25,218 nt of DNA, from positions 64,001-89,218 of IMG/VR virus record IMGVR_UViG_3300035492_000080. The stretch is one strand, 5' to 3'. The position numbers were made by a program, and so were the translations under genes. Of this stretch, positions 6,257 to 22,937 are shown piece by piece. Under the pieces are notes generated by a model, which did not search any database, was not told where the DNA came from, and saw nothing but the letters and a program-made list of their open reading frames with translations. Source of the stretch: a virus. Its lineage: Duplodnaviria; Heunggongvirae; Uroviricota; Caudoviricetes. Each line of letters begins with the position of its first letter. The first letter of the stretch is position 1.

Positions 6257-6285
6257 TTGCAACAGTAAAAGAAACAGTTTAAAAT
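6257..6285 (+). promoter_or_regulatory. sigma70-like promoter for the AAA+/vWA unit
   Basis: TTGCAA-N17-TAAAAT. Confidence 0.75.
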
Positions 6286-6333
6286 TAGGGCTTCAGAATA
6301 AGCCACACTTAAAATCAAAATGGAGGAAAACTA

Positions 6334-7476
6334 ATGCTCAAGCTCACTATGTCTCAACTGAAGAACCTTCTGCCGATCTACATCAAGGCAAACACTCCTG
6401 TAATGATCTGGGGTGGTCCGGGCGAAGGTAAATCCGGTTTGGTGAAAAGTGTTGTTGAGAAAATCGGAGCTGATCTGCAAGACTTCCGTCTGCTGATGCG
6501 TGATGCCGTTGATGTTCATGGTCTGCCTGATAAAAATGAAGATGGTCGCATGGTTTGGTCCTATCCGAAAGAGATGCCACTGGCGTCCGATAAGATCGAG
6601 AAAACCCGCGTAATGTTCCTTGATGAACTTCCGGCAGCACCTACTAACGTTCAAACTGTCGCATACCAAATGCTGCATGAACGTGCAATTGATGACACGC
6701 CTCTGCATGAGAATGTTCGTTTCGTGGCTGCTGGCAACCGTGAGCGTGATGGTGCTGTTTCCAACCGCATGCCCACGCCTCTGGCAAACCGCATGGCTCA
6801 CTTCGATGTTGAAGCAGATGTCAATAGCTGGCTGAGCTGGGCACACGGTGCTGGTCAGAACCCGTATGTTCTGGCTCACATTGAAAACAGCCCGCAAGAC
6901 CTACGAGTTGCCGATATCAAGGAATACACCACCAATAAGGCGTTCCGTTCGCCTCGTGCTTGGGAATACACCAGCAATGTTCTGAAAATTGCATTGCAAG
7001 GGAACGATGGGACTATCTCTGATGGTGACATCTCAATGATGGAAGATATTGTTGCATCTTTCGTAGGTGCTCCAACTGCTGCAAACTTCCGTGGTTATAT
7101 CGAGGTAGGAGCGAAGCTTCCGAAGCCTCGGGAAATTCTGGAAGGTAGTGTGAAAGCCAAGCGTTTTGAGCTGCATGAGCAATTCTTCATTTCGTGTGGT
7201 GTTCTTGCTCAACTGGCAGAAAACCGGAAGTTGGTAGAGGTGCGTGGGGTTTCTGATTATCAGAATGATCCTGAGTTTATGAAAGGTGTTGACAATGCTC
7301 TGGGTTTTGTTAAGGATAGTTTTGATGCCGAAACTCTGGCATCTTTCCTGAGCCGCTTCGTCAACCGCGACTTCTACGGCTTCCATTTCTCCAGTCAAAG
7401 TGCTGTACAGAAAGCATGGGCACAATCTGTATTTGGCGGTAAAGAAGGTCATAGCCGACTCATCTTCGCAAGCTAA
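6334..7476 (+). CDS. MoxR-like (AAA_5-type) AAA+ ATPase
   Basis: Walker A GGPGEGKS, Walker B VMFLDE, sensor-1 AAGN, Arg finger LANRM; GGAGG RBS. Confidence 0.9.
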   Translation: MLKLTMSQLKNLLPIYIKANTPVMIWGGPGEGKSGLVKSVVEKIGADLQDFRLLMRDAVDVHGLPDKNEDGRMVWSYPKEMPLASDKIEKTRVMFLDELPAAPTNVQTVAYQMLHERAIDDTPLHENVRFVAAGNRERDGAVSNRMPTPLANRMAHFDVEADVNSWLSWAHGAGQNPYVLAHIENSPQDLRVADIKEYTTNKAFRSPRAWEYTSNVLKIALQGNDGTISDGDISMMEDIVASFVGAPTAANFRGYIEVGAKLPKPREILEGSVKAKRFELHEQFFISCGVLAQLAENRKLVEVRGVSDYQNDPEFMKGVDNALGFVKDSFDAETLASFLSRFVNRDFYGFHFSSQSAVQKAWAQSVFGGKEGHSRLIFAS

Positions 7477-7493
7477 TAAAAATTAATCCAACT

Positions 7494-7521
7494 AGGGCAC
7501 CGAATGGTGCCCTTTCTCTCT
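7494..7521 (+). terminator. intergenic hairpin, weak terminator/attenuator
   Basis: AGGGCACC-GAAT-GGTGCCCT followed by TTCTCTCT, between the ATPase and vWA genes. Confidence 0.65.
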
Positions 7522-7530
7522 GGAGGGAAA

Positions 7531-8667
7531 ATGTCTAAGAATTTCACTGCTGCTGAAAAACTCACAATTGCCCGGATCGCGCTTGGTAAGCGTTTTCCTT
7601 TTTACAGTTTTCTAGCTCTTCGCCTGAAACTGAAAGAAGTTTCGGAGATTCCAACAGCGGGTGTTGATGGTAAAGGCACTATGTACTACAACCCCGAATT
7701 CATTGATGGTCTCACTACAGACGAGATTGTTTGGTTGTGGGGTCATGAAATCGGCCATCTTGTTTTTGAACACGTTGCACTGAAAGGTAAACGCAACCAC
7801 ACCCTCTGGAACATGGCAGGCGACTATGCAATCAATCTTCTTCTTGAAAAGGATGGTGTTGGTAAGCGTATTAAAGATGTTCTTTACGATACCAAGTATG
7901 AGGATTGGACGGCTGCTGCAATTTATGAAGACCTCTTGAAAGATGCGGAAGCGAATGCTCAGAAGTATGGGGAGGCAACCGGCGCTGACGACCATTCGAT
8001 GTGGGGAGACCTCACTGAAGAAGAACAAGCCAAGGTTAGTAAGCAGTGGCGTCAAGCTGCTGTTGCAGCCGCCCATGCTGCAAAGCAGGCAGGTGGGCAG
8101 GTTCCAGAGGCATTCCGTGACCTGATTTCTGATCTTACCGAGACAAAGATTCGTTGGGAGGATATTGTTCGTGAGCGTATCCGTTCTTTCAACAAGGAAG
8201 AAATTAGTTGGAGCCGGGTAAACCGTCGCCGCCAGTTGGGTGAATTCAACTACCCCGGAAAGAAGCCCGGCGAAAAAGTTAAGTTTATGGTGGCTATTGA
8301 CGTGTCTGGTAGTTTCTCTCAAGAAGATGTCACTAAGGCAATGTCTGAGGTATATGGTGCCACTCGTGAATTCAATGAAGTGACTGTTGATGTAATTCAA
8401 TGGGACACTCGGGTGTATGGTGAAAAGCAATTTACTCAAGATAATGCAGATGAGATGGTTGGATACCAGATTGAGGGTGGTGGTGGTACTGATTTTAACT
8501 GTGTGATTGACTACCTTCGTGATAATCATATCGAACCGTCTCAATTGTTTGTATTCACTGACCTCTATTTCAGTTACATGCCTGATCCCGGCATTTGCCC
8601 AACTACATTTATTGCAGTTGGGAATGATGCAGAGGGGCCGTATGGCGAAACTGTTAAATATGAATAA
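7531..8667 (+). CDS. DUF2201-type protein: HExxH metallopeptidase-like domain plus C-terminal vWA domain
   Basis: AGVDG..MYYNPEF, GHEIGH, WNMAGDYAIN. MIDAS elements IDVSGS, GGGTDF, FTD. GGAGG RBS supports ATG 7531. Confidence 0.9.
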   Translation: MSKNFTAAEKLTIARIALGKRFPFYSFLALRLKLKEVSEIPTAGVDGKGTMYYNPEFIDGLTTDEIVWLWGHEIGHLVFEHVALKGKRNHTLWNMAGDYAINLLLEKDGVGKRIKDVLYDTKYEDWTAAAIYEDLLKDAEANAQKYGEATGADDHSMWGDLTEEEQAKVSKQWRQAAVAAAHAAKQAGGQVPEAFRDLISDLTETKIRWEDIVRERIRSFNKEEISWSRVNRRRQLGEFNYPGKKPGEKVKFMVAIDVSGSFSQEDVTKAMSEVYGATREFNEVTVDVIQWDTRVYGEKQFTQDNADEMVGYQIEGGGGTDFNCVIDYLRDNHIEPSQLFVFTDLYFSYMPDPGICPTTFIAVGNDAEGPYGETVKYE

Positions 8668-8679
8668 GAGGATTTAAAT

Positions 8680-9087
8680 ATGACAAATTTTCTCCTGAAA
8701 AACGTTCTTGATGACGATACTGGCTCATCAACATACTCAGACACTTTTAACCAAATCTTCGTTGATATTTCAGGGGAAAATTTCTCAATAAATAAGAATA
8801 TACTAATGAGTGTTTCTAATAGAATCTCTTGGGTAGCTGAAATGACTATGCCAGAGAAGTTCGGAGAAGACAGACACTTCATAGTTTATATGAAGCTTGA
8901 AGAAGCTGAAACTTTCCAGAATCTCTGCTTAGCAGTTGGTGCAAAATTAGAAGTTATAGATTTTCTCGAAAAAGAAAAATATCCCATAGAAGTTAGAGAA
9001 CTTATAGACACCTATTGGGAAATAAGTGATGAAGGTGTTTGCAGGTTTCTCAATAATCTTGTATATGAGGGGGCCATTGGTGGATAA
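8680..9087 (+). CDS. acidic hypothetical protein (AT-rich gene)
   Basis: GAGG RBS, 135 aa. Confidence 0.75.
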   Translation: MTNFLLKNVLDDDTGSSTYSDTFNQIFVDISGENFSINKNILMSVSNRISWVAEMTMPEKFGEDRHFIVYMKLEEAETFQNLCLAVGAKLEVIDFLEKEKYPIEVRELIDTYWEISDEGVCRFLNNLVYEGAIGG

Positions 9088-9460
9088 TCTTTTTATTGTT
9101 ATGAGAATGGAAGATGCCGATAAAACATCAAATTTTGAAAACGTCATTATCATTAAGGGCACTGAGTGCTTAGAGATTGTCTCTAATGTTTGTAAAACTC
9201 TCGATATCTACAAAGACTTTTCAAAAGAAGATGATGGTAATTGTGATGGAATTGGGGAGGGACTAGAATACCTCATGACGGATGATGAGGTATTGTTGAT
9301 TGAAACTGTGTTAAGCACCAGTGCAATTGAAACATATCATTTTGATATGGAAGACATTTCCTATTTCAAGAAGGTGGATCAAAGAGATTTAAACAAGGAT
9401 ATTCGTTTGAAATCTCTTTGTGACTTCATTGAGCAAAAACAGGGGAGTAAAGGAGGGTAG
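9080..9460 (+). CDS. acidic hypothetical protein (AT-rich gene)
   Basis: GAGGGGG RBS supports GTG 9080; stop abuts the primase ATG. Confidence 0.75.
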   Translation: MDNLFIVMRMEDADKTSNFENVIIIKGTECLEIVSNVCKTLDIYKDFSKEDDGNCDGIGEGLEYLMTDDEVLLIETVLSTSAIETYHFDMEDISYFKKVDQRDLNKDIRLKSLCDFIEQKQGSKGG

Positions 9461-11167
9461 ATGGGTGGGGTGATTGGGCGAGAGCAGTGCCCAAAGTGTG
9501 CTGAAGGTGGTGGAGACAGAAGCAAGAACAACTTAGCCCGCTACTCCGACGGAGGCGGGCATTGTTTTGTCTGTAACTATCATGAGTTTGCAAACAGTAA
9601 GAATCGTGTGAGGGAGGAAAAAGTGGCGACTGAGAAGGTAGGAATTGAAGTTTACCATTCCTTACCTTATGGTGAAGTTCATGGCGTTTCAAAAGAAACT
9701 TGTCAGAAATACGGAATCAAGGTAAGTGTCAATGAAGAGACAGGAAGAGTTGAGAGTGTATACTACCCTTACTACTCAGAAGATGGTAAACTAGTAGCTG
9801 CAAAGGTGAGGAAACTCGCAACAAAAGAGTTTCACTGGATTGGTAGTCCAAGTAAAGCCACACTCTTTGGCCAACAAACCATTGGCCAAGGGGGTCAGAT
9901 GGTGATCATCACTGAAGGAGAAAAGGATGCTCTCGCTCTGAGTGAGATGTATCGACTTTCCGGTAAAAATTATCGAGTAGTTTCCATCAAGGATGGTGCT
10001 TCTCTCCCACGAGCAGGGGAGAAGTTGCCAAAACCTGACATCACTGTTGCCACAAACTTGGACCTCCTGTCTAAGTTCAACCATGTAATTGTCGCAATGG
10101 ACAAAGACAAGGCGGGTGAAGCAACAGCTAATATGATTGCGGAGATGGTGGCTCCAGTAACTAGTGTGAAAATCCTAGATTACCCCGATGGGTACAAGGA
10201 TGCTCACGAGTGTTTTGAGGGTGTGTTTGATTCTTCAGGAGAACAACTTAAACCAGCGATCCCGCGAGCCGCTCTAACATGGCTCCAGAACGCTCGTGAT
10301 TTCGTTCCTGAAGCGATTTACAATGGTAGTGATATCGCCCTAGAGGACTTGATGACACCACTTGCTCCCGGTGCTCCTATCCCGTTTCAGGGGTTGCAGG
10401 AGAAGATGCACGGGCTTCGTAAAGGCGAGTTGACAACTATCTGTGCGGCATCCGGGGCTGGTAAGAGTACGCTTACACGAGAGCTTGCTTATTCACTTGT
10501 GAAGAGTGGCCACCGTGTAGCAAACATCTTCCTCGAAGAGACGATGGAGAAAACCGCCCAAAGCTTCATTGCTCTGGATAATAACATCCCACTGGCTCGT
10601 TTGCGTGCAATGCCTAATTCGATTGCTCCAGATGATTACAAGCGGAGTTATGAAGAACTTGTAGCTAATGGTCGCAACTTCTTCTTTAAGCACTTTGGTA
10701 GCTTAGACAGTGACTTGTTGTTGAATAAAATGCGCTACTTTGCTCAGGCTCAGCAGTGTGATTTTATTTTCCTAGACCACTTGTCGATGGTTGTAAGCGC
10801 GAGCGATGAGGGGAATGATGAGCGTAAATTGCTAGACAAGATTTGTACTAAGCTGGCGGCGTTCTGTACTGAGACTGGTGTTGGTGTGATTATGGTTGTT
10901 CACCTTCGTAAGACAGGAAACAACCAACAGAGCGCTTCACAGGGCGGCATGATTACGCTAGACGATCTTCGTGGCTCTGGTGGTATTGCTCAGCTGTCTT
11001 TCAACGTTGTAGCTGCTCTACGGGACACTACGGCTGTGGATGATGGGAAGGCCAACATTGTTCAACTTTGGGTTTTGAAAAACCGAGAATGGGGCAGCAC
11101 AGGGATGGCCGGTAGGCTTGTCTATGATCGACAAACAGGACGGTTAAAAGAACTGCCTGATTTTTAA
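9461..11167 (+). CDS. bifunctional DNA primase-helicase (T7 gp4-like)
   Basis: Zn finger CPKC...HCFVC; TOPRIM ITEGEKDA and MDKD; SF4 helicase motifs AASGAGKS, FLEE, FLDHL, VVHLRK, LRGSG, KNR. Confidence 0.95.
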   Translation: MGGVIGREQCPKCAEGGGDRSKNNLARYSDGGGHCFVCNYHEFANSKNRVREEKVATEKVGIEVYHSLPYGEVHGVSKETCQKYGIKVSVNEETGRVESVYYPYYSEDGKLVAAKVRKLATKEFHWIGSPSKATLFGQQTIGQGGQMVIITEGEKDALALSEMYRLSGKNYRVVSIKDGASLPRAGEKLPKPDITVATNLDLLSKFNHVIVAMDKDKAGEATANMIAEMVAPVTSVKILDYPDGYKDAHECFEGVFDSSGEQLKPAIPRAALTWLQNARDFVPEAIYNGSDIALEDLMTPLAPGAPIPFQGLQEKMHGLRKGELTTICAASGAGKSTLTRELAYSLVKSGHRVANIFLEETMEKTAQSFIALDNNIPLARLRAMPNSIAPDDYKRSYEELVANGRNFFFKHFGSLDSDLLLNKMRYFAQAQQCDFIFLDHLSMVVSASDEGNDERKLLDKICTKLAAFCTETGVGVIMVVHLRKTGNNQQSASQGGMITLDDLRGSGGIAQLSFNVVAALRDTTAVDDGKANIVQLWVLKNREWGSTGMAGRLVYDRQTGRLKELPDF

Positions 11168-11176
11168 GGAGGTAAT

Positions 11177-12760
11177 GTGAAACTGAATGGGTTTGTACTA
11201 GACGTTGAGGCTAATGGGTTTTACTTCCAGTCAACCCTGATGTGGATTATTCACCTGCGAGATTTGTATACTGGAGAGAAGTTGTCTATTTATCCATTTA
11301 AGGATGTGGCTGCGCCTCTCCAATTCGATCAGTGGATGAATAAATACACCAACCCCTTGGTGGTATTTCATAATGGATTGGGGTATGATATTTTCGCAAT
11401 GCGGAAACATCTAGGAATCAACTTCACCGTTGGACCGGATACAATCAATGAAAAACCTGTAAGGTTTGTAGACACTTTTTACCTATCAATGTTTCTAAAC
11501 CCTGATCGTCAAGGTCATGGTATTGAGCCGTGGGGTGAACGTCTTGGGTTGCAGAAAATTGACTGGCGTGGTGAAGCAATTAAGCTTGGCTTGATTGATA
11601 AGAATGCTCCAGATGGGGCAGAGTTTATGCAGTGGCATCCTCAGATGGGTGTATACTGTGAACGAGACGTAGAAGTTAACGTAAGAGTGTTTCTTGCACT
11701 TCTTGATGAATGGCGAGATGCTTACGGAGAATGGACTGAAACACTCCCACAACATTTTAAGTGTGGGCAGAAGAGTTTCTATCTCATGTCCTGTCAGGCT
11801 CTTTGTGGGTGGAAGTTTGATAAAGAGAAAGCTCTAGCTCTCAAGGAGAGGATTGCTGTAATGATGGAAGAGATTCGGGCTGCCACTGAGCCGAAGCTTC
11901 CACCTCGCCCACTTAAAAAGGGTGAACAAAATAATTTCACAATCCCTGCAAAACCTTGGAAAAAAGATGGAACATTCTCTTCTCATATGCTAAACTTTAT
12001 AGAGAAGCATAATGCTGAAGTGATTGACAGCCACAATATCCGCGTATACGGAATGGATGTGGAAATCGAGAGCAGGAAGATTCTCGATGTTAAGGTGCCT
12101 ATGGAAATGGGCAACCAAGACGATATGAAGGAATGGTTTTTGGAAATGGGCTGGGAGCCTGTATTCTGGAACTACAAGAAGGGACCGGATGGGAAACCGG
12201 AGAGGGATAGTCGCAGACAATTAATCCCAACATCGCCAAAGATTCAGGAGCAAGGGAAAATTTGTCCCAACCTGCTTGCGATGGAAGGTGATATTGTTAA
12301 AGATGTTGTGAAGTGGCTGAGCTTGCGAAACCGAGCTGCTGTGTTGGAAAGTTGGATTAATAACCCTCGTCTAGAAATGGACGGTAGACTCCCAACAGAC
12401 AGGACAGGTATTGCAGCAACACACAGACAGAAGCACAAGATCGTTGTGAACGTTCCAAAAGCCTCTGAGAAAGTATTGCTTGGTAAGGAGTTCAGGGAAC
12501 TGTTTACCAGCGAGGAAGGCTTCAAAATTGCTGCTGGTGACGCGGCAGCACTTGAGGGAAGGGTACAGGGCCACTATACGTTTAAGTACGATGGTGGAGC
12601 CACTGCGAAGGAATTGCTTGAGGGTGATCCACACTCTAAGAACGTTGTTGCGTTCTATTGGGATGATGAGCCGGTGTTGCATCAATTTAATATTAATGAT
12701 CCTGCATTTGATAAGGAACATCCGATATTCAAACCATTCCGTGACAGGAGTAAAAACGGT
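11177..12760 (+). CDS. family A DNA polymerase, exon 1 (3'-5' exonuclease, thumb, motif A, start of motif B)
   Basis: DVEANG, FHNGLGYD, YCERD, GDAAALEGR; ends RDRSKNG at the 5' splice site. Confidence 0.93.
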
Positions 12761-13466
12761 TAATTTAGCCCGCTAACTGAGTAATCAGTTAGATGAATTG
12801 TGTGAATTCAGGGGAAGTCTTAATAGGTAGTGCTAAAGATAATCCTGAGCCAAGCCAAATAGCGTATTGCCTTTATGGGAGGTGGTATGCACATAGTTAG
12901 AAGTAATAAAAAGCAGGAAGAACAAACTGCTTCACCGGACAAGTACCCACAAGGTAGGTTCAATGAGAAGCCTTGTAGAGAGTGTAAGGAGATTTACTCA
13001 CCTAAAGCTCCATCACACCTGTACTGCTCGGATGATTGCGCGGATAATGGTACGACTAGGAATTATCTCAGGAAAAATTATGGGATAACTTTAGAAGAGT
13101 ATAAAGAGATGGTTGTAAATTCTGGTGGTAAGTGTAATATTTGTGGAGATGTTGGTTTTACGATGAACCGTAATCAGCGTTCCCCGCTTGTGATTGACCA
13201 CTGCCACGCAACAGGAAAGGTTAGAGGGCTTCTTTGTCACAATTGCAACAGAGCACTCGGACTGTTTAAAGACAACATTCAAACATTAGAAACCGCAATA
13301 CGCTATCTGGAAGGTGCAACGACTATCCCGCAAGGGAGTACACTGGAGTCAGTGGAAGCGCACAACACCCTTCAATAAGGGTGATGATATAGTCTGATCT
13401 TTATGGAAACATAGAGCAGCTTGAATAAAGCGGGGAGAGCTTAACGAACTCTCCTGAACATAAATG
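12761..13466 (+). mobile_element. self-splicing group I intron (IA2-like), 706 nt
   Basis: U before the 5' splice site and terminal G. P2 hairpin 12773-12792 with GUAA loop. P/Q AATTCAGGGGAA/AATCCTGAGC. R/S GTGCAACGACTA/ATGATATAGTC. P7.1 and P7.2 hairpins, P3, P8 and P9 pairings. Excision restores motif B in frame. Confidence 0.93.
12887..13378 (+). CDS. intron-encoded homing endonuclease, EndoVII-type HNH
   Basis: YGITLEEY, CNICG, IDHCH, VRGLLCHNCN.ALG.FKD; N-terminal CRECK...YCSDDC Zn finger. GGAGG suggests ATG 12887 (alternative start 12875). Confidence 0.9.
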   Translation: MHIVRSNKKQEEQTASPDKYPQGRFNEKPCRECKEIYSPKAPSHLYCSDDCADNGTTRNYLRKNYGITLEEYKEMVVNSGGKCNICGDVGFTMNRNQRSPLVIDHCHATGKVRGLLCHNCNRALGLFKDNIQTLETAIRYLEGATTIPQGSTLESVEAHNTLQ

Positions 13467-13994
13467 TATTATGCAACGATGTATGGTTGTAGTGGACCGA
13501 AGCTTGCCAAAACCCTTGGTTTGCCAGAGTTTAAAGGAGATATTCTTCTGGAGAGGTTTTGGGATGTAAACCCTGGCACCAAGGAATTGAAAGATAACTT
13601 GGAAAGCTTTTGGAATACTAAGGGCCAGAAGAAGTGGCTACCTGCAATTGATGGAAGACGTTTGATTACGCGCAAGAAGAGCGCATTGTTGAACACAATC
13701 TTCCAAAGTTGTGGTGGTATTGCAATGGATTATGCTTGCTGTTTCATGGATAAGTGGCTTGGCCCGATGTATTGGGATCGCTATGGCCGTCCTTTCTACA
13801 AGTATAAAGGGTGTGTTGTTCGCCGTATTGGCTACTACCACGATGAATTGGAATTCGAATGTGAAGAGCCAGTTGCAGAGGAAGTTTCCAAGATGATTGA
13901 GAAAGCAATCACCAAAGCTGGAGAATTCTTAAAACTTGAGATTCCTTTGGCCGGTGAAGGTAAGACCGGGAAGACGTGGAAAGACGTTCACTGA
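13467..13994 (+). CDS. family A DNA polymerase, exon 2
   Basis: YYATMYG (rest of motif B), LLNTIFQS, YHDE (motif C), W..VH terminus; spliced product is 703 aa. Confidence 0.93.
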   Translation, partial: YYATMYGCSGPKLAKTLGLPEFKGDILLERFWDVNPGTKELKDNLESFWNTKGQKKWLPAIDGRRLITRKKSALLNTIFQSCGGIAMDYACCFMDKWLGPMYWDRYGRPFYKYKGCVVRRIGYYHDELEFECEEPVAEEVSKMIEKAITKAGEFLKLEIPLAGEGKTGKTWKDVH

Positions 13995-21994: not shown

Positions 21995-22653
21995 GGGTGG
22001 TTGGAGTTACAGGGAACAAGAGAAGTGGGAAGGATACGATTGGAAAGATTTTGCAAGAGAAAGGATATCAACCTCTAAGTTTTGCTAAGAAGTTGAAAGA
22101 TGCTGTTCACAAACATTCTTACGTCCATATTCATACTGTCTCTGGAGGTGATGAGAGTAGACGTGAAGAGGTGGGGAGTGTTATGATTCTGCTCCGGGAT
22201 ATCATTCGAATGGCCAAGTTCCTAGAATTTGATAGGAAACTCTACTACCCTTTCCAGTGCCGATTCCTAGAGGTATTTCAACCCTATGTAAGTATGGAAA
22301 CTGATCTTGGAGTTTCTTATAAAATGTCCGAGCGTACATACTTACAACTTCTTGGAACTGAAGTGTGTCGCTATTTTAAAGACAGTATTTGGGTTGACTT
22401 CATTCGTGATGAAATAGAGAATAATCCAAAGAATAAATATGTAATCACTGACGTTCGCTTTGACAATGAAGCAGAAATGATAACCGCCAATGGCGGTAAA
22501 GTTGTTTGTGTAGTGAGGGAGGGGATGGACGGTGATGGTCATGTTTCTGAGAAGGGTGTATCATCCCACCTCATTGATTTCATTATAGAAAATAATGGAA
22601 CATTTGAAGATTTGAGAGCGGAGATAAATAAAAATTGCAGTTTGAATATGTAA
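21991..22653 (+). CDS. deoxynucleoside monophosphate kinase
   Basis: GVTGNKRSGKDT P-loop, SFAKKLKD, RTYLQLLGTE, SIWVD, ITDVRFDNE. Confidence 0.9.
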   Translation: MRVVGVTGNKRSGKDTIGKILQEKGYQPLSFAKKLKDAVHKHSYVHIHTVSGGDESRREEVGSVMILLRDIIRMAKFLEFDRKLYYPFQCRFLEVFQPYVSMETDLGVSYKMSERTYLQLLGTEVCRYFKDSIWVDFIRDEIENNPKNKYVITDVRFDNEAEMITANGGKVVCVVREGMDGDGHVSEKGVSSHLIDFIIENNGTFEDLRAEINKNCSLNM

Positions 22654-22937
22654 TTAGTGAAGATAAGCAATGGTGTAAGGTTGTTTGGAGGGATAGCTTC
22701 ACACAAAACTATCTAGCCAAAGTTACCTTCACCCATACCAGACGACCATTTGAAGTATTTGTGACAGATGAGGTTAAGGGAGATGTCATCAATTTCATTG
22801 AGGCGGTATTCCCGCGTAAAAATGTGATGAGTTTTAAATCTGACATTGGGGCTGGAATGTTCCGAATTAACCAAACATTTAATACGCAAGAGGTGGAGCA
22901 GGTAATAAACTTCATTAATACGTTGGAAGGCCGTTAA
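22635..22937 (+). CDS. hypothetical protein
   Basis: ORF fills the gap between kinase and next gene; TTG start. Confidence 0.65.
   Translation: MQFEYVISEDKQWCKVVWRDSFTQNYLAKVTFTHTRRPFEVFVTDEVKGDVINFIEAVFPRKNVMSFKSDIGAGMFRINQTFNTQEVEQVINFINTLEGR

Follow-up and report, generated by a model that had tools for sequence, protein, structure and literature searches.

Positions 6257–9460 of a 25,218-nucleotide stretch of viral DNA (here called the window; bases 64001–89218 of the 89,218 bp uncultured virus record IMGVR_UViG_3300035492_000080, which has a 127 bp terminal repeat) hold four plus-strand open reading frames (ORFs), all present as an earlier note on this DNA had described them. The first two encode an AAA+ ATPase and a partner protein that carries a peptidase motif and a von Willebrand factor A (vWA) domain with a metal-ion-dependent adhesion site (MIDAS). 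Judged by its sequence, this pair is of the type of gp24 and gp25 of phage N4 (PHROG 1297 plus PHROG 1314). It is thus a published kind and not the undescribed system that the note had proposed. On balance, we read the pair as a two-gene module for ATP-driven remodelling and cleavage of proteins that is expressed with the replication genes. The phage is without a close cultured relative, and searching 50,697 phage records with the nucleotide sequence of the region returned zero matches. We compared the locus with seven relatives (L023, L024, L026 and L035–L038), which together with the window make up a clade of eight members, and with one further close relative, L002. The clade relatives lie on contigs of 75–91 kb, and their ATPases are 55–79% identical. 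The pair and the elements around it are laid out as follows.

6257–6285, plus strand: sigma-70-like promoter TTGCAA-N17-TAAAAT (9/12 consensus positions, conservation in relatives)
6289–6304, plus strand: short hairpin GGCTT-CAGAAT-AAGCC in the predicted 5′ leader of the ATPase gene (reading of the sequence)
6334–7476, plus strand: AAA+ ATPase of the MoxR/midasin (AAA_5-like) kind, 380 residues, homologue of N4 gp24 (phrog_1297)
7494–7521, plus strand: GC-rich hairpin then U-rich tract, intrinsic-terminator-like, candidate attenuator (folding, conservation)
7531–8667 (less likely start 7504), plus strand: zincin-like metallopeptidase and MIDAS vWA protein (DUF2201_N + DUF2201), homologue of N4 gp25 (Pfam, phrog_1314)

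Identity of the ATPase and its partner

The ATPase had been described as intact, and every catalytic motif is indeed present and invariant in an alignment of 47 homologues. In the Walker A motif (WGGPGEGKS, nucleotides 6409–6435), the invariant residues are G27, P29, G30, K33 and S34. Walker B (6610–6627) contributes D97 and E98, and sensor-1 (6727–6741) contributes N135. R136 and R153 are likewise invariant, and R153 occupies the Arg-finger position (PLANRM, 6778–6801). The MoxR-style sensor-2 motif SPRAW (6946–6963) keeps P207, R208 and W210. The protein matches phrog_1297 (‘ATPase’) at 9.4e-72 over nearly its full length, with a weak second match to phrog_249 (‘porphyrin biosynthesis’, CobS-like) at 4e-7. 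Against Pfam, the generic AAA profile alone passes (23.9 bits, cut-off 21.2). The earlier note had named AAA_5, DUF2201_N and DUF2201 as the profiles to search with; both DUF2201 profiles pass for the partner, but AAA_5 (PF07728) stays under its curated threshold for the ATPase (18.1 bits, cut-off 22), and AAA_3 (PF07726) gives no match. Homologues at 30–38% identity to the ATPase do carry AAA_3, AAA_5 and bpMoxR (PF20030). Compared with solved structures, the ATPase family profile best matches the AAA modules of midasin (E 1.9e-22), with the next AAA+ families at 8e-7 or worse, and the single sequence also matches midasin best (2.7e-4). RavA, CbbQ and NorQ are not within the best 60 sequence matches of the profile. 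By these sequence comparisons, the ATPase is a member of the MoxR/midasin-type clade of AAA+ proteins.

The partner had been said to combine HExxH (GHEIGH) with a complete MIDAS vWA domain. Both features are conserved across 78 partner homologues, and thus they are real and under selection. The protein matches DUF2201_N (PF13203; 5.5e-36, 125 bits, cut-off 23.2) at residues 17–243 and, following it, DUF2201 (PF09967; 1.9e-16, 60.7 bits, cut-off 26.4) at residues 263–385, as well as phrog_1314 at 1.5e-101 over nearly its full length. Proteins with these two domains are of the COG3864 type (‘predicted metal-dependent peptidase’). Residue numbers of the partner count from the start at 7504. The invariant residues are H81, H85, A105, D107, D266, S268, S270, G327, G328, T329 and D353, of which D266, S268, S270, T329 and D353 form the MIDAS pattern DxSxS...T...D, and E82 and H90 are each kept in 75 of the 78 homologues. 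On the DNA, these motifs are found at 7744–7773 (HEIGHLVFEH), 8299–8313 (DVSGS), 8479–8490 (GGGT) and 8557–8562 (TD). The description of a MoxR-type ATPase with a vWA adaptor and a fused peptidase motif is therefore borne out, with all motifs intact. The partner is acidic, with an isoelectric point (pI) of 4.95, and a Pfam scan finds no DNA-binding domain in it.

The AlphaFold2 model of the partner has a predicted local distance difference test (pLDDT) value of 88.5. The vWA domain (residues 255–387) superposes well on the solved collagen VI, CMG2, VWF A2 and integrin I domains, with Z values of 12.1–12.8 and a root-mean-square deviation of 2.3–2.5 Å for 129–133 residues, and its Foldseek probability is 1.00. 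It also matches the MIDAS domain of Rea1 and NorD of the solved NorQ–NorD complex (Z 10.5–10.9, NorD at 10.5). Modelled alone (pLDDT 89.6), the N-terminal domain has nearest structures that are nearly all zincins: 3e11 (a predicted zincin), ArdC, BlaR1, ZMPSTE24, selecase, abylysin, SPRTN and Wss1. Since these matches reach just Z 4–5.1, and Foldseek with the N-terminal domain alone gave no match at E ≤ 0.001, we base the name zincin-like peptidase domain on the motif and the Pfam clan, the support from the fold being weak. The partner family profile matches selecase MJ1213 (E 4.4e-4), and the single sequence compared with solved structures gives chance matches to urease only.

The partner gene most likely starts at ATG 7531 and not at ATG 7504. 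The former is preceded by the Shine–Dalgarno (SD) sequence GGAGGG, and the latter sits inside the loop of an 8 bp GC hairpin. A gene caller run on a second assembly of the same phage gives the shorter form of 378 residues, and the homologues start at about residue 10–13 of the long form.

PHROG 1314 bears the label ‘HNH endonuclease’, which we rejected for the partner because the protein has no HNH domain. In GenBank, the zincin–vWA protein often carries the wrong label ‘HNH endonuclease’ or ‘homing endonuclease’ (e.g. NC_071039.1, OR805292-5 and many OZ19xxxx Vibrio phages). True HNH genes are often inserted beside or within the pair (G7C gp24.1, PAC2, L026), and these insertions may be the origin of the mislabel.

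Distribution and comparison with known systems

By tblastn, 751 phage records contain the partner and 841 the ATPase. Among the carriers are N4-like, rV5-like and Certrevirus phages, jumbo phages of the PA5oct-like and RaK2/121Q-like groups and numerous Vibrio phages. The partner family comprises 16,908 clusters at 50% identity (E ≤ 0.001). A profile search detects both genes in 5/5 cultured phages of four lineages (E ≤ 1e-58), and all eight clade members have the pair. In 13 of 14 distant viral contigs, the ATPase gene is the upstream one of the two and shares its strand with the partner gene, and the ATPase-first order on one strand recurs in G7C, XC38, CR8, 121Q, PAC2 and all clade relatives. 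The two ORFs of the window are 27 nucleotides apart, or 54 with the 7531 start. An exception to this linkage is the rV5-like phage slur16, in which the two genes are divergent and about 3.6 kb apart.

The N4/G7C gp24/gp25 pair (Schitoviridae) shares both PHROG families, the gene order and the strand with the window pair. The profiles match G7C at 1.4e-58 and 1.3e-79, and the G7C record annotates the matching proteins as gp24 and gp25, ‘similar to N4’. In N4-like phages, gp24 and gp25 are two of the 14 core genes, belong to the middle transcripts and are listed as ‘unknown’ and ‘vWFA domain’ (PMC4193335). Both pairs are placed among genes for replication or nucleotide metabolism. However, the N4-like pair shows just 25–30% identity to the window pair, and the window ATPase has a longer C-terminal part, such that N4-like ATPase matches cover about 55–70% of the query. 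The N4-like pair is also part of the core of a podovirus family, whereas here the pair is optional in a FelixO1/PAK_P1-like myovirus group whose cultured members are without it.

The pair of the group 2.2 jumbo phages (PA5oct, RaK2, 121Q) was described by Iyer et al. (2021) as a MoxR–vWA chaperone/co-chaperone pair with an N-terminal metallopeptidase (PMC7824862), and it has the same domain architecture. The PA5oct-type partner is the best cultured-phage match to the window partner (34% identity over 96%, E 5e-61). The jumbo-phage genes differ in that several ORFs and a homing endonuclease often lie between the two. They have been proposed to act in virion assembly and processing (PMC7824862), a role against which genomic context and distribution argue in the case of the window clade.

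In midasin/Rea1, RavA–ViaA, CbbQ–CbbO and NorQ–NorD, too, a same-clade AAA+ motor is coupled to a vWA domain whose MIDAS holds an acidic client residue, but no zincin domain is fused to the vWA domain in them. The clients known for these systems are pre-60S assembly factors, respiratory complexes, Rubisco and nitric oxide reductase. The vWA–MoxR–VMAP ternary conflict systems (Kaur et al., 2020; PMC7159879) likewise contain MoxR and vWA proteins, sometimes with a peptidase fused to the vWA domain, and some homologues of the window ATPase carry their bpMoxR domain. These are bacterial defence loci, whereas the window pair is phage-borne and flanked by RNA ligase and primase-helicase genes; the window locus is without a VMAP component or an effector domain, and its neighbours have no Pfam or PADLOC match. 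In the animal CLCA family, an HExxH protease and a MIDAS vWA domain are present in one chain, and the vWA domain of CLCA1 ranks with the best structural matches. However, CLCA proteins are secreted, cleave themselves and have no AAA+ partner; the likeness is architectural only and implies no homology of the proteases.

Genomic context

Throughout the clade, early small genes (or the gene for an RNA ligase) lie on one side of the pair, and the genes for a primase-helicase and a DNA polymerase lie on the other. In the window, the primase-helicase gene is

9461–11167, plus strand: T7-type primase-helicase (phrog_239 at 6e-147; Pfam DnaB_C and Toprim)

The primase-helicase gene follows the pair in the same gene order, and the polymerase gene comes after it, in L002, L023, L024, L026 and L035–L038. 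The order in XC38 is ATPase, hypothetical ORF, partner, helicase and DNA polymerase; that in G7C is gp24, HNH, gp25 and dCTP deaminase, with thymidylate synthase further on. In slur16, the genes of the pair are found beside rIIA, rIIB and a helicase gene.

The genes for the head protease, capsid, sheath and baseplate are about 35–60 kb away on the other strand. We considered the partner as the head maturation protease itself and rejected this, since the genome has a separate one (phrog_53, 1.5e-76). The closest cultured capsid relatives, at 50–55% identity, are Limnohabitans DC31, Curvibacter P26059A, PAK_P5, KIL1 and PseuGesM_254, and a profile search found both genes of the pair absent from all five (positive controls 5/5). 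The pair is thus optional for this virion type, which weighs against an assembly role in the window clade.

Several features of the surrounding genes are recorded here in their own right. Genes for a class I ribonucleotide reductase (G000:C1:160-3039; phrog_84 at 1e-157, phrog_86 at 5e-62) lie just past the window end on the circular map, and these NrdA/NrdB genes prolong the block of replication and nucleotide-metabolism genes. At 11177–13994 of the window, the DNA polymerase gene is split into parts of 528 and 176 residues with an Endonuclease_7 ORF between them (gene caller, L027). The polymerase is uninterrupted in L002 (2853–4937) and L023 (10926–13034; 702 residues), and the first 528 residues of the L002 protein are 95.8% identical to those of the window. 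The arrangement agrees with a reading of the insertion as an intron. Some relatives, but not the window, have HNH_3/AP2-type homing endonuclease genes (L023:10348-10917, L035:11885-12445, L026:9101-9649), which either separate the primase-helicase gene from the polymerase gene or come right behind the partner gene.

Expression layout

The earlier note had assigned the pair its own sigma-70 promoter. Taken singly, the match is weak: it fits 9 of 12 consensus positions, and the region is not enriched in such matches (15 found, compared with 10.3 ± 2.8 expected). However, a sigma-70-like promoter is present upstream of the ATPase start in six of the seven relatives, or seven of the eight clade members with the window included, so the promoter at 6257 is supported by its conservation. 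It lies about 83 nucleotides upstream of the start in four relatives and nearer in L023 and L038; no such promoter precedes the ATPase gene of L026. Of the six promoters in relatives, five carry the −35 hexamer TTGACA. The leader hairpin at 6289–6304 comes after the predicted −10 element; its arms are AAGCC/GGCTT at the same place in relatives and in reverse order in the window, and it may stabilize the 5′ end of the transcript. RNAalifold of the promoter and leader region gave no structure.

The hairpin behind the ATPase gene (7485–7525) has a folding energy of −18 kcal/mol and a z-score of −4.4. A GC-rich hairpin and a U-rich tract directly 3′ of the ATPase stop codon are present in all eight clade members, as determined from eight single folds. 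The hairpins differ between phages in stem and loop, and their tetraloops include GAAA, UUCG and GCAA. MAFFT/RNAalifold misaligned two of the eight and gave a weak consensus, and the single folds were relied on instead. Probably this hairpin acts as an attenuator and thereby fixes how much ATPase is made relative to partner.

The use of codons typical of highly expressed genes (CTG, CGT, GGT, ATC), judged by eye in the earlier note, is confirmed by counts. In the ATPase gene, CTG makes up 61% of Leu codons (17% in the genome), CGT and CGC together 81% of Arg (41%), GGT 67% of Gly (42%) and ATC 62% of Ile (33%), and AGA, AGG, ATA and TTA do not occur. The partner gene has the same bias in weaker form. 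Together with the promoter, the strong codon bias and the hairpin ahead of the partner gene suggest a highly expressed ATPase unit, with smaller amounts of partner arising by read-through. Such a ratio would suit a hexameric motor and a substoichiometric adaptor.

Small genes around the pair

Two small genes fill the space between the partner gene and the primase-helicase gene.

8680–9087, plus strand: orfA, 135 residues, acidic orphan in a hypervariable slot
9080–9460, plus strand: orfB, 126 residues, acidic orphan, GTG start, SD sequence GAGGGGG, overlapping the orfA stop codon

As described earlier, both products are acidic (pI 4.3 each) and their genes come directly ahead of the primase-helicase gene. 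They look like genuine genes, since orfB has a good SD sequence and overlaps the orfA stop codon and both were called on another assembly. Searches against 5.8 billion proteins returned only the proteins themselves and the same phage, and neither has a match in Pfam, PHROG, PADLOC or NCBIfam; for the locus as a whole, scanning its four proteins with PADLOC and NCBIfam was uninformative. orfA weakly resembles the ORF at the same position in L002 (E 8e-5, a single pairwise comparison), and a pairwise comparison of orfA with orfB shows no similarity. In a protein atlas, orfA gives BTB-like feature matches of 0.90 with few shared features, which is the chance level (model pLDDT 0.43), and orfB gives nothing informative. 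Their composition is also unlike that of the pair: for orfA and orfB together, the GC content is 35%, and AGA makes up 71% of Arg and ATA 30% of Ile codons. We compared the content of the slot between the partner and primase-helicase genes in the relatives.

L023: empty
L002 (partner 91% identical): two different ORFs
L026: HNH gene and one ORF
L035: two ORFs
L036: three ORFs
L037 and L038: one ORF each
L024: five paralogues of another family

The earlier note had taken the two genes as partners of the pair and proposed a survey of their co-occurrence with it. Homologues of orfA and orfB do not accompany the pair; they are absent from the 14 distant loci, and the slot varies within the clade. 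Because the same slot in relatives is empty or filled by unrelated small genes, orfA and orfB are not obligate partners. Most plausibly, they are accessory genes specific to the lineage that occupy a hypervariable slot and do not belong to the machine.

A different set of small proteins is linked to the pair in the relatives. In six of the seven, the gap between the ATPase and partner genes is filled by one to five tandem copies of a single family of 70–98 residues with a C-terminal motif of about E-E-L-x-x-V-L-N-F-L-x-x-L-x-G-E. The window gap contains no ORF. Iterated hidden Markov models (HMMs) recruit 20 members at E < 1e-3, the best decoy among reversed ORFs reaching E 0.07–0.2. Of the 16 gap ORFs, 15 belong to the family; outside the gap, it includes 4 of 104 small ORFs from these loci (Fisher p = 1e-14) and one ORF elsewhere in the window. 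A second family of ten members is confined to the partner-to-primase slot of L024, L035, L036 and L037.

Gap family, between ATPase and partner genes: L023:7191-7460, L024:7198-7446, L026:7185-7904, L035:8182-8478, L036:5738-6693, L037:4230-5485
Gap family, window 22635–22937, plus strand: sole member in the genome, with two copies of ...E-V-x-x-V-I-N-F-I... (iterated HMM, E 2.1e-9)
Second family, partner-to-primase slot: L024:8619-9787 (five tandem paralogues), L035:9895-10149, L036:7901-8663, L037:6691-7002

The ORF at L036:7901-8143 bears both the second-family motif and the NFL motif of the gap family, a hint in the sequence that the two families may be distantly related. Both lack a PHROG match, and 20 loci of other phage lineages show neither family next to the pair. 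The orfA motif YMKLEEAETFQNLCLAVG lines up with the gap-family motif. However, iterated HMMs recruit orfA and orfB to neither family, and hhalign against the gap family gives a probability of 10% for orfA with its L002 counterpart and under 1% for orfB. Since neither joins the small-protein families at significance, the idea of small partners is unsupported for orfA and orfB, and the gap and slot families of the clade are the better candidates.

Proposed mechanism and alternative explanations

In the reading that we favour, somewhat above even chance, the ATPase would form a hexamer and be made in excess, and the partner would dock on it as a substoichiometric adaptor. The MIDAS metal would grip an acidic residue of the client, by analogy with Rea1/midasin, CbbO and integrin I domains (the MoxR–vWA family is summarized in PMC7159879). 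ATP hydrolysis would then pull or remodel the client, and the zincin domain would cut it. The module would be switched on from the host-type promoter together with the RNA ligase, primase-helicase and DNA polymerase genes. This promoter and the company of replication and nucleotide-metabolism genes point to action in early or middle infection rather than in head maturation. We think a virion protein less likely as the client than a conserved host protein: N4-like phages of widely differing hosts have the pair in their core, yet it is optional in the myovirus group of the window, and there is no one phage-encoded protein of replication or structure that is common to the carrier lineages. Prediction of the ATPase–partner complex gave a score of 0.56 (median of 0.57, 0.00 and 0.56), with 0.00 for the best control, a partner pLDDT of at least 65 and a between-run contact agreement of at least 0%. 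In calibration, the pass mark of this tool was reached by 58 of 80 solved complexes and by 2 of 110 mismatched pairs; at 0.60 or under, just 7 of the 80 solved complexes pass, and both mismatches do so too.

Several points weigh against this reading. The complex prediction supports it weakly, one of the three runs having given 0.00. The third zinc ligand of the partner has two candidates, H90 (75/78) and D107 (78/78), and the zincin matches of the N-terminal domain fall under the level of a safe fold match. The post-ATPase hairpin could stabilize the RNA instead of attenuating transcription, and gene neighbourhood is not timing. The pair of 121Q comes directly after a run of five structural genes, and virion-protein genes lie near the gp24/gp25 homologues of roseophage RPP1 (PMC4193335). 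Distribution is the only ground for preferring a host client to a phage client. Finally, we found no experimental study of the pair in the literature, and its ATPase activity, complex formation and proteolysis are all inferred.

The 121Q and RPP1 neighbourhoods speak for the explanation that the pair is a virion-assembly chaperone and processing protease, which folds or assembles structural proteins and trims them, as proposed for the group 2.2 jumbo phages by analogy with the MoxR–vWA proteins required for tail growth of Acidianus two-tailed virus (PMC7824862). They keep this model alive in other lineages. For the window we think it unlikely: the genome has its own head protease, its structural genes are far off on the other strand, five close capsid relatives build the same kind of virion without the pair, the pair stands among replication and nucleotide-metabolism genes in the window clade, XC38 and G7C, and the N4 pair is a middle and not a late transcript (PMC4193335). 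A maturation factor like NorQ–NorD, CbbQ–CbbO or CobS–CobT, which would insert metal into or reactivate a phage enzyme of replication or nucleotide metabolism such as the class I ribonucleotide reductase, has a small chance of being right. The HExxH domain would then be a metal-handling or regulatory module and not a general protease. Such work is the classical role of MoxR–vWA pairs (PMC7159879), and the structural match of the vWA domain to NorD, the CobS-like second match of the ATPase, the placement among nucleotide-metabolism genes in G7C and 121Q and the nearby NrdA and NrdB genes all suit it. However, no enzyme is common to all carrier lineages, and the known cofactor-insertion pairs are all without a fused zincin. 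Moreover, the Glu of HExxH is catalytic and not metal-binding, so its retention in 75 of 78 homologues points to hydrolysis.

The explanation of the earlier note, in which orfA and orfB serve the pair as adaptors or substrates in the removal of a host defence protein, repressor or replisome component, appears quite improbable. Both genes are tightly packed behind the pair, with orfB translationally coupled to orfA; their acidic products would suit a MIDAS ligand, small fast-evolving genes surround the pair clade-wide, and the YMKLEEAETFQNLCLAVG motif of orfA aligns on that of the gap family, though with the low hhalign probability given above. These points are outweighed by the orphan status of both genes, which join neither small-protein family at significance, by the empty slot of L023, the two different ORFs of L002 and the five paralogues of L024, by a composition sharply unlike that of the pair, by the lack of a PADLOC match and by the absence of the small-protein families beside the pair in the 20 loci of other lineages. 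It is very unlikely that the motor and zincin clear roadblocks in the manner of Cdc48–Wss1 and SPRTN, that is, strip proteins stuck on the phage DNA for replication. ArdC, SPRTN and Wss1 are among the structural neighbours of the N-terminal domain (Z 4–5), and the pair stands ahead of the polymerase gene, with a primase-helicase gene in between here and a helicase gene in XC38. However, these structural matches do not rise above noise and occur among many other zincins, and the partner is acidic with no DNA-binding domain.

A further reading has only a slim chance of being correct. The pair would be a programmable protein-removal machine, to which small, acidic, fast-evolving neighbours would bring different host proteins for the MIDAS and the protease, as interchangeable adaptors or decoys. 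These neighbours would be the gap family, the slot families and possibly orfA and orfB.

Implications

The window adds no new kind of system. New here are the conserved layout of promoter, ATPase gene and terminator-like hairpin in eight clade members, the small-protein family in the gap of the pair in relatives, and the absence of the pair from the five closest cultured capsid relatives of a genome with its own head protease. The pair is among the most widespread phage modules without a known job, being core in all N4-like phages and present also in rV5-like, jumbo and many uncultured phages, and the question of its role is sharpened by the present comparison. It is dispensable for building this virion type and travels with replication genes, its wiring probably yields the motor in excess of the adaptor, and the clade flanks it with rapidly changing small proteins that are candidate partners. 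If the pair were indeed a programmable machine, the contrast between a conserved motor pair and its changing small neighbours would be accounted for by an arms race with the host.

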